This document shows, one piece after another, positions 1,809 through 4,019 of a DNA stretch of 5,577 nt. The stretch lies in the sequence record KX266300; one strand, given 5' to 3'. Origin of the DNA: Enterobacteria phage ID11. Under the pieces are notes generated by a model. That model had not been told where the DNA came from. It ran no database searches and was given only the letters and a program-made list of their open reading frames with translations. The position numbers and the translations under genes were made by a program. The first letter of the stretch is position 1. Each line of letters begins with the position of its first letter.

Positions 1809-1974
1809 CGCCCTTGACGAGGAAAAATACCTAAACATGCTAGGTGCTCTCCTTAAAGACTGGTTCCGGTACGAAGAACATTTCGTACATGGTAAACAAT
1901 CAATGCTTGACATACTGAAAGAACGTGGCCTATTATCCACATCGTCAACTGACACAAACCACAAAGGAAACTGA
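1720..1974 (+). CDS. C: Protein C (ssDNA synthesis and packaging switch), 84 aa
   Basis: ATG 1720-1722 overlaps the A stop TGA 1721-1723. Translation [42 protein letters not shown]... is near-identical in pattern to phiX174 C. The track ORF at 1702 is only an upstream extension to a GTG. Confidence 0.9.
1907..1936 (+). promoter_or_regulatory. Candidate sigma70 promoter upstream of D (P_D-like)
   Basis: Perfect -35 TTGACA at 1907-1912, an 18-nt spacer, and -10 TATTAT at 1931-1936. The predicted start is about 1943-1945, roughly 30 nt before the D SD and ATG. Position inside C matches the known P_D arrangement in phiX174. Confidence 0.45.
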
Positions 1975-1975
1975 A

Positions 1976-2434
1976 ATGTCTAAATCAAACGAATCTGCTG
2001 TAGCCTTTCAAACCGCTATTGCTTCTATCAAACTTATTCAAGCCTCTTCTGTTCTTGACCTGACAGAGGACGACTTTGACTTCTTAACTCGCGACCGTGT
2101 CTGGATTGCTACCGACCGCTCACGCGCTCGCCGTGCTATCGAGGCCTGCGTATATGGAACACTGGACTTTGTCGGGTATCCTCGCTTTCCTGCTCCTGTT
2201 GAGTTTATTGCTGCCGTCATTGCTTATTATGTTCATCCCGTTAACATTCAAACCGCCTGCCTCATCATGGAAGGCGCTGAGTTTACCGAAAACATCGTCA
2301 ATGGTGTTGAACGCCCAGTTAAAGCCTCTGAACTGTTCGCCTTCACTCTTCTCGTTCGCGGCGGAAACAAAGATCTTATCGGTCACGCTGAAACAAACAT
2401 CCGTGAACAATTACGTGCTCAAGGTGTTATGTAA
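1976..2434 (+). CDS. D: External scaffolding protein D, 152 aa
   Basis: Translation from MSKSNESAVAFQTAIASIKLIQAS... is highly similar to phiX174 D over its full length. SD AAGGA at 1964-1968 lies 7 nt before the ATG. Start is 1 nt after the C stop (TGAAATG). The track ORF start at 1925 is an upstream in-frame extension. Confidence 0.95.
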   Translation: MSKSNESAVAFQTAIASIKLIQASSVLDLTEDDFDFLTRDRVWIATDRSRARRAIEACVYGTLDFVGYPRFPAPVEFIAAVIAYYVHPVNIQTACLIMEGAEFTENIVNGVERPVKASELFAFTLLVRGGNKDLIGHAETNIREQLRAQGVM

Positions 2435-2444
2435 AGACCTCTGA
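2154..2444 (+). CDS. E: Lysis protein E (single-gene lysis, MraY inhibitor family), 96 aa
   Basis: Nested in D in the +1 frame. N-terminal hydrophobic helix MEHWTLSGILAFLLLLSLLLPSLLIMFIPLTF carries the conserved Pro21, followed by a basic C-terminal region, as in phiX174 E. Stop TGA at 2442-2444 is 10 nt past the D stop. The track ORF begins at an upstream GTG (2097). Confidence 0.85.
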   Translation: MEHWTLSGILAFLLLLSLLLPSLLIMFIPLTFKPPASSWKALSLPKTSSMVLNAQLKPLNCSPSLFSFAAETKILSVTLKQTSVNNYVLKVLCKDL

Positions 2445-3883: not shown

Positions 3884-3892
3884 CGCAACAAA

Positions 3893-3998
3893 GGCCGCCC
3901 CTCTACTGGTCAGATACCTGCCCAATGTGGGGCGGACCGTGCCTACGGAGACACCCGAGTCTCCGATACATGGACGGCGAAAGCCGCCGTCCCTACTG
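3893..3998 (+). other. Complementary (-) strand origin, G4-type: three stem-loops plus a CTG primase start site in the F-G intergenic region
   Basis: The 136-nt F-G spacer (3884-4019) holds three hairpins readable from the sequence: 3893-3901/3929-3938 (9 bp with one bulged A, 27-nt loop), 3946-3952/3959-3965 (7 bp, 6-nt loop) and 3972-3979/3985-3992 (8 bp, 5-nt loop). CTG at 3996-3998 follows the last hairpin. The reverse complement of 3972-3997 is AGUAGGGACGGCGGCUUUCGCCGUCC, which matches my recollection of the G4 primer RNA 5' end. Confidence 0.7.
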
Positions 3999-4019
3999 CA
4001 AAGCCAAAAGGACTAACAT

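Follow-up and report, generated by a model that had tools for sequence, protein, structure and literature searches.

Gene E within gene D of a coliphage ID11 genome

The window, that is the whole stretch of 5577 nt analysed here, is 99.9% identical over all 5577 nt to the genome of coliphage ID11 (AY751298.1), a circular molecule of 5577 nt that belongs to Gequatrovirus G4 (Bullavirinae) and has the annotated gene order A-A*-B-K-C-D-E-J-F-G-H. In that record "protein E" is annotated at 2154..2444, inside "protein D" at 1976..2434. Translation of the window gives the same picture. Gene E runs from an ATG (2154–2156) to a TGA (97 codons, 96 aa) and its product starts MEHWTLSGILAFLLLLSLLLPSLLIMFIPLTFK, while gene D runs from the ATG at 1976 to a TAA at 2432–2434 and encodes 152 aa. 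The two start codons are 178 nt apart (2154-1976 = 3×59+1), which places E in the +1 frame of D, and the E stop ends 10 nt past that of D, inside the spacer which separates D from J (J, 2477–2554). The preliminary description of this DNA had located E at these positions in the +1 frame of D, with its stop in the D-J spacer 10 nt beyond the D stop, and had compared its 96 aa to the 91 aa of phiX174 E. All of these statements hold on the sequence; the E protein of G4 is likewise of 96 aa. Coordinates of the main features are collected in Table 1.

Table 1. Features of the gene D/E region in the window
Feature	Coordinates	Strand	Evidence
Gene E, coding sequence (96 aa and TGA)	2154..2444	+	AY751298.1 annotation; PF04517; PDB 8g02_B and 8g01_B
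E transmembrane helix, residues 9-29, ILAFLLLLSLLLPSLLIMFIP	2178..2240	+	Hydropathy; alignment; frozen D third positions
Pro21 codon CCG, essential helix-kinking proline	2214..2216	+	Invariant in alignment; ID52 P21A
His3 codon CAC, residue as in phiX174 Epos R3H	2160..2162	+	Translation; alignment; PMC4825663
E codon 70 GCG (Ala); CCG (Pro) in wild-type ID11	2361..2363	+	Comparison with AY751298.1
GAGG Shine-Dalgarno core of E, within D codons 56-57	2141..2144	+	Anti-SD pairing; conservation
E stop TGA in the D-J spacer	2442..2444	+	Same arrangement in ID11 wild type, G4 and NC19
Gene D, external scaffolding protein, 152 aa, host of E	1976..2434	+	Pfam PF02925 (2.1e-82); annotation
D promoter, TTGACA, 18 nt, TATTAT	1907..1936	+	Promoter scan, 11/12 matches

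When the E frame is opened mechanically, it starts further upstream, at a GTG (2097), and would yield a 115-aa product. This GTG was ruled out as a conserved E start by three alpha3-like relatives, in which a stop closes the frame 4 codons ahead of the ATG. Because of these upstream stops, and since all E proteins of relatives share the ATG and the M-x-x-W-T-L motif, we retained 2154 as the start of E.

The E protein matches the Pfam family PF04517 (Microvir_lysis) at 9.6e-22 with 77.1 bits, compared to a cutoff of 25, the full 40-position model being covered. It also matches PHROG 1472, of the lysis category, at 9.9e-45, and two PDB chains, 8g02_B ('Lysis protein E', 4.6e-25) and 8g01_B ('GPE', 3.9e-22). 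The 8G01 entry is the MraY-E-SlyD ('YES') complex, whose construct is named EcMraY-E(ID21) (PMC10914600). Four features expected of a microvirus lysis protein E were thus found: a position in the +1 frame of D, a profile match, an N-terminal helix with Pro21 and a basic, variable tail. The earlier reading of the locus as a phiX174-type lysis gene E carried by D is supported by the GenBank annotation, by both protein families and by the 8G01 and 8G02 chains. We consider, with a probability of about 0.97, that 2154–2444 is gene E of coliphage ID11, which encodes the single-gene lysis protein of the phage and is expressed from D/E mRNA in the D +1 frame. Gene E is already known here and already annotated in GenBank; E within D is a textbook case of overlapping genes and homologues have been solved bound to their target MraY, so that its identification carries little weight as a discovery. 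A Rfam scan of the whole window returned no family at threshold.

Selection on the E frame is visible in the silent sites of D

The +1 frame of D is poor in stops, the three that it includes lying within the first 112 nt. When the codons of D were shuffled synonymously 20,000 times, 3.5% of the shuffles left 115 or more consecutive +1 codons free of stops. The length of the E ORF is by itself modestly unusual and a modest signal (P about 0.035), and one could therefore ask whether the open frame is a chance by-product of D codon composition, without a functional product. The antisense frame of D provides an example of such an effect, as it is also open for 96 codons through codon choice alone. 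This minus-strand ORF (2120–2410, 96 aa), opposite D/E and codon-aligned with D, is open because D includes no TTA, CTA or TCA between codons 50 and 145. Antisense runs of 82–153 codons were observed in all relatives. As a gene, we rejected this ORF, which most likely arises as a side effect of codon usage.

For the E frame itself, the relatives give a different answer. Their loci were collected through the D homologue and not through E, which avoids a bias towards finding E. In every G4-like, phiX174-like and alpha3-like locus fetched, with one exception, an E ORF starts 175–178 nt into D, and its length is of 76, 91, 96 or 103 aa. The exception is a phiX174-like locus (L007, IMGVR_UViG_2534682327_000003, 1679–1699) where E codon 7 is a TAG (ATG GTA CGC TGG ACT TTG TAG), which we take to be the classical lysis-defective mutation am3 of phiX174; the entry, labelled an 'uncultivated viral genome', probably derives from a laboratory stock of phiX174. 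A variant arrangement was found in NC6 (5529 nt; locus L018, 401–712) and locus L002. The D-J spacer is absent in NC6, D and J overlapping by one base, and the NC6 E, of 103 aa, reaches 31 nt past the D stop into J and so overlaps two genes.

Since the second codon position of E is the third position of D, constraint on E should freeze the silent sites of D. We calculated the diversity of D third positions as the mean pairwise difference, only at codons whose D residue is invariant. Diversity was 0.44 at D codons 1–59, where there is no overlap, 0.16 at D codons 60–94 (E codons 1–35) and 0.33–0.43 under the E tail. It fell to about 0 at D codons 69–88, which correspond to E residues 10–29; in this segment only codons 70 and 85 were above zero (0.12 each). 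These values show that the E helix is under purifying selection and that the tail is near-neutral. The constraint of the overlap is thus directly visible, the silent sites of D being frozen only under the E helix. This fits the published view of the transmembrane region as the essential part of E, as worded in a passage of PMC4825663 that cites Tanaka and Clemons 2012.

Taken together, the conservation of ATG, GAGG and helix sequence in three genera, the D synonymous sites frozen exactly under the helix, the family and structure matches of E and the experimental lysis phenotypes in ID11 and relatives leave practically no room for a chance frame, in spite of the stop-poor +1 frame. It is homology and conservation, not ORF length, that place E beyond chance.

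The helix is almost invariant whereas the tail is variable

The helix of E, LAFLLLLSLLLPSLLIMFIP, is almost invariant across three genera. It is preceded by a short N-terminus, MEHWTLSG, and forms the single hydrophobic segment of the protein (about residues 9–29), with a Kyte-Doolittle maximum of 2.79 (19-residue window) at residues 9–28. An alignment of 10 E proteins from the three genera contains 30 invariant columns, including W4, T5, L6, F12-L18, L20, P21 and S22-P29. Within the helix (residues 9–29), 17 of the 21 positions are invariant, P21 among them, and conservation reaches 90% or more at 2 others. The preliminary description had proposed a single N-terminal transmembrane helix with a conserved Pro21. 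Both proposals are borne out, the first by this one segment with its peak of 2.79 and the second by the invariance of the proline in all 10 sequences, phiX174 and G4 included. Consistently, the mutation P21A in the E of the related phage ID52 abolished lysis (PMC11126076). The tail has other properties. Residues 33–96 include 8 K/R versus 2 D/E, and identity to the tails of the other genera is limited to 16–28 of 61 residues.

Compared to known E proteins, the window E is closest to that of wild-type ID11 (AAW72843.1), with the same coordinates, length and genome context and 95 of 96 residues identical; the only difference is P70A. G4 E is of the same length, also stops 10 nt past the D stop and shares 33 of the 35 N-terminal residues (89% identity overall). 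It carries Phe19 in place of Leu19 and nine differences in the tail. The E of phiX174 (PDB 8G02) lies at the same place and in the same frame of D, with the same GAGG-9 nt-ATG arrangement, the helix FLLLLSLLLPSLLIMFIP and Pro21. It is nevertheless 5 residues shorter (91 aa), ends 5 nt before D does, carries Arg3 where the window has His3, and its tail is about 46% identical (28/61). The alpha3-like ID21 E (PDB 8G01) is identical at 32 of the first 35 residues, including MxHWTLSGILAF... and His3, which makes it the closest solved structure for the helix of the window E. At 76 aa it has a shorter and different tail, and its stop is located 50 nt before that of D.

Beyond the microviruses, RNA phages provide single-gene lysis proteins that are unrelated in sequence to E and have other targets. 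Q-beta A2 acts against MurA and LysM of levivirus M against MurJ. In line with PMC12506998, Q-beta A2, LysM and MS2 L share the strategy of E: a single small protein interferes with one step of the lipid II pathway, without any muralytic enzyme.

Proposed mode of action

By analogy with its homologues, the N-terminal helix of this E (residues about 9–29, kinked at Pro21) would enter the inner membrane and bind to MraY, in the groove that flanks its helix 9. Lipid I synthesis would then be blocked and growing cells would lyse. The basic and poorly conserved C-terminal tail would remain cytoplasmic, where in phiX174 and ID21 it engages the chaperone SlyD. The timing of lysis would be set by the amount of E, through the strength of the D promoter and the region of E translation start.

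MraY is the target of phiX174 E, and mraY mutations such as F288L lead to resistance; by cryo-EM, the kinked E helix was located in a hydrophobic groove beside MraY helix 9 (PMC11812184). For ID52-E, overexpression of mraY protects cells from lysis (PMC11126076). Inhibition of MraY by the present E allele can be inferred from these homologues. An older model, known from 'bacterial ghosts', has oligomers of E span the envelope as a transmembrane tunnel, instead of inhibiting MraY, and micrographs of E-lysed ghosts are still described with 'transmembrane tunnels' (PMC11126076). We regard it as very improbable here, since it has to face the solved complexes 8G01 and 8G02 in which E is bound to MraY, the resistance to E conferred by F288L-type mutations in mraY (PMC11812184) and the block of ID52-E lysis by mraY overexpression. 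In addition, a near-invariant helix is easier to reconcile with a specific protein partner than with a generic pore.

Native His3 and the role of SlyD

Lysis of slyD-defective hosts by phiX174 is not detectable (PMC3324380), and wild-type phiX174 E needs SlyD for stability (PMC4825663). The Epos changes of phiX174 are R3H (pos6, G575A) and L19F (pos5). Both raise the synthesis of E, and Epos alleles carried on plasmids lyse faster than wild type (PMC4825663); Epos mutants have been described as SlyD-independent (PMC11812184). In the window E the third residue is natively a histidine, encoded by the same CAC codon, which is the state reached by R3H in phiX174. His3 is native in the E proteins of ID11, G4, NC19 and the ID21-like phages, and G4 also has Phe19 (positions 455–457 of its locus, L016).

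Binding of SlyD by this E is likely, as judged by its homologues. Dependence on SlyD, to which the preliminary description had pointed, is transferred from phiX174 and appears uncertain, the evidence being mixed, because of the native His3 and because ID52-E still lysed a slyD knockout when expressed from a plasmid (PMC11126076). The latter result was obtained with arabinose-induced overexpression, and is not decisive, the text of the same article reading as if phiX174 E also lysed the slyD knockout. One may imagine that the gene is the same E but that SlyD is not needed in this lineage, where native His3, with Phe19 in addition in G4, would let enough E accumulate for lysis of slyD-deficient hosts; the SlyD dependence of the preliminary description would in that case be wrong. 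The native CAC codon for His3, the raised synthesis and SlyD independence associated with R3H and L19F in phiX174, the presence of both residues in G4 E and the lysis of the slyD knockout by ID52-E speak for this possibility. Conversely, ID21 E also carries His3 and still forms a SlyD complex stable enough to be solved (8G01), and induced plasmid expression of ID52-E can mask a stability requirement. On balance we hold a SlyD-free lineage to be possible but rather doubtful. Since G4-like E proteins natively carry a residue of SlyD independence, SlyD dependence should not be transferred to them by homology alone.

The E translation signal and the dosage of E

The E start codon is preceded by a GAGG at a distance of 9 nt. 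The GAGG is present in 8/8 relatives examined, and the GAGG-9 nt-ATG arrangement is kept. At D codon 56 (GAG) the synonymous GAA is never used and third-position diversity is 0.00, which hints that the Shine-Dalgarno (SD) sequence of E may be maintained by selection. The preliminary description had called this SD weak and had seen it as consistent with a low expression of E. The GAGG itself, with its 4-nt core and long 9-nt spacer, is indeed there. Its anti-SD pairing energy, however, is -5.9 kcal/mol, compared to -5.6 for D, -5.9 for F, -5.3 for G and -6.0 for H (kcal/mol), and is therefore equal to those of genes whose products are abundantly made. Low expression of E thus cannot be deduced from its SD; among SD traits, just the longer spacer sets E apart.

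We also considered a hairpin that would occlude the SD and lower E expression. In an 81-nt fold the GAGG pairs with 2130–2135, where two of the mutations that delay lysis (2131 and 2134) are located. The GAGG was unpaired with a mean probability of 0.25 (partition function over 100 nt), versus 0.29 +/- 0.14 in D-synonymous resamples, of which 38% were at or below the observed value. Since accessibility was indistinguishable from these controls, the hairpin was rejected as an explanation. Predicted structures around the E SD vary between relatives, and none of the published mutations 2094, 2131, 2134, 2147 and 2158 alters the predicted accessibility of the SD. The authors of PMC4958007 likewise found no strong support for such mechanisms.

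Experimental data from ID11 bear on the amount of E. Changes in the D promoter (1910aG, 1911cT) make lysis later by 5–8 min, and changes a short way ahead of E, 2131cT and one at 2134, by 12–13 min (PMC4958007). These delays show that lysis timing in ID11 is set by the dosage of E. The change at 2134 is written both tC and cT in PMC4958007; the window and AY751298.1 have a T at this position, with which tC is consistent. The D promoter, from which the D/E transcript is made, is wild type in the window (TTGACA at 1907–1912, 18-nt spacer, TATTAT at 1931–1936).

The window is an evolved genotype with a mutation read in both D and E

Three differences separate the window from AY751298.1: 2361 C>G, 2578 C>T and 2615 A>G. 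The first affects the first base of E codon 70, which is also the middle base of D codon 129 (2360–2362), and changes both proteins, E by P70A (CCG to GCG) and D by A129G (GCC to GGC). The second falls in the J-F spacer and the third in F, at residue 6 counting the initiator Met ("F5" to the authors of the study cited below). Miller et al. 2016 (PeerJ, PMC4958007) list 2361.C.G, 2578.C.T and 2615.A.G in their supplement for isolate alpha_2A_F5_1. In the tree of well alpha_2A, 2615.A.G is the starting background and 2361.C.G together with 2578.C.T is present in 5/5 isolates; no D-promoter mutation is given for this population (PMC4958007). Because its three changes exactly match the endpoint isolates of alpha_2A, the window corresponds to the genotype of a laboratory-evolved isolate. 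A 41-mer carrying 2361G was found in 0 records of a phage collection in which the wild-type 41-mer was found in 343.

In the nine other aligned E proteins, position 70 is a proline in 8/9, the remaining one, phiX174, having Gln. On the side of D, Ala129 is invariant in 16/16 relatives from three genera. The authors suspected 2361 C>G to delay lysis (PMC4958007), and P70A, in the supposedly dispensable tail of E, may have this effect. More specifically, 2361 C>G might retune the timing of lysis through the tail, for instance through SlyD engagement or E stability, a suggestion which we regard as tentative. If it were true, the E tail would be a timing dial and not an inert sequence. Alternatively, selection could have acted on the change in D, where the mutated alanine is otherwise invariant. 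The double-frame mutation P70A/A129G is in any case a candidate for altered lysis timing. At the RNA level, the local 81-nt MFE is -6.6 kcal/mol with the wild-type base and -11.2 with 2361G, and the anti-SD-like affinity is -3.5 and -5.0, respectively; an RNA effect was set aside, as these shifts are too small and context-dependent to interpret.

Other features of the window

A terminator-like hairpin, GTGGGAC-CGCG-GTCCTAC with a T-rich tail, follows J at 2563–2580. The 2578 C>T change lies in this hairpin, where it turns a G-C into a G-U pair and lowers the predicted stability from -13.1 to -10.8 kcal/mol. Mutations at 2575, 2577 and 2578 are labelled 'J.term' in the tables of PMC4958007, and read-through past the J hairpin into F may be under selection.

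The F-G spacer (3884–4019) harbors three strong ssDNA hairpins, with an MFE of -31 kcal/mol (z = -5.1; 0/200 shuffles were as stable). This spacer is presumably the place of the primase-dependent complementary-strand origin of G4. Inside gene A, at 500–529, we found CAACTTGATATTAATAACACTATAGACCAC, which we take to be the conserved 30-nt viral-strand origin nicked by protein A in phiX174 and G4. In gene A, an ATG at 32 extends the open frame 27 nt (32–58) upstream of the annotated start at 59, and a GGAGG precedes this annotated start.
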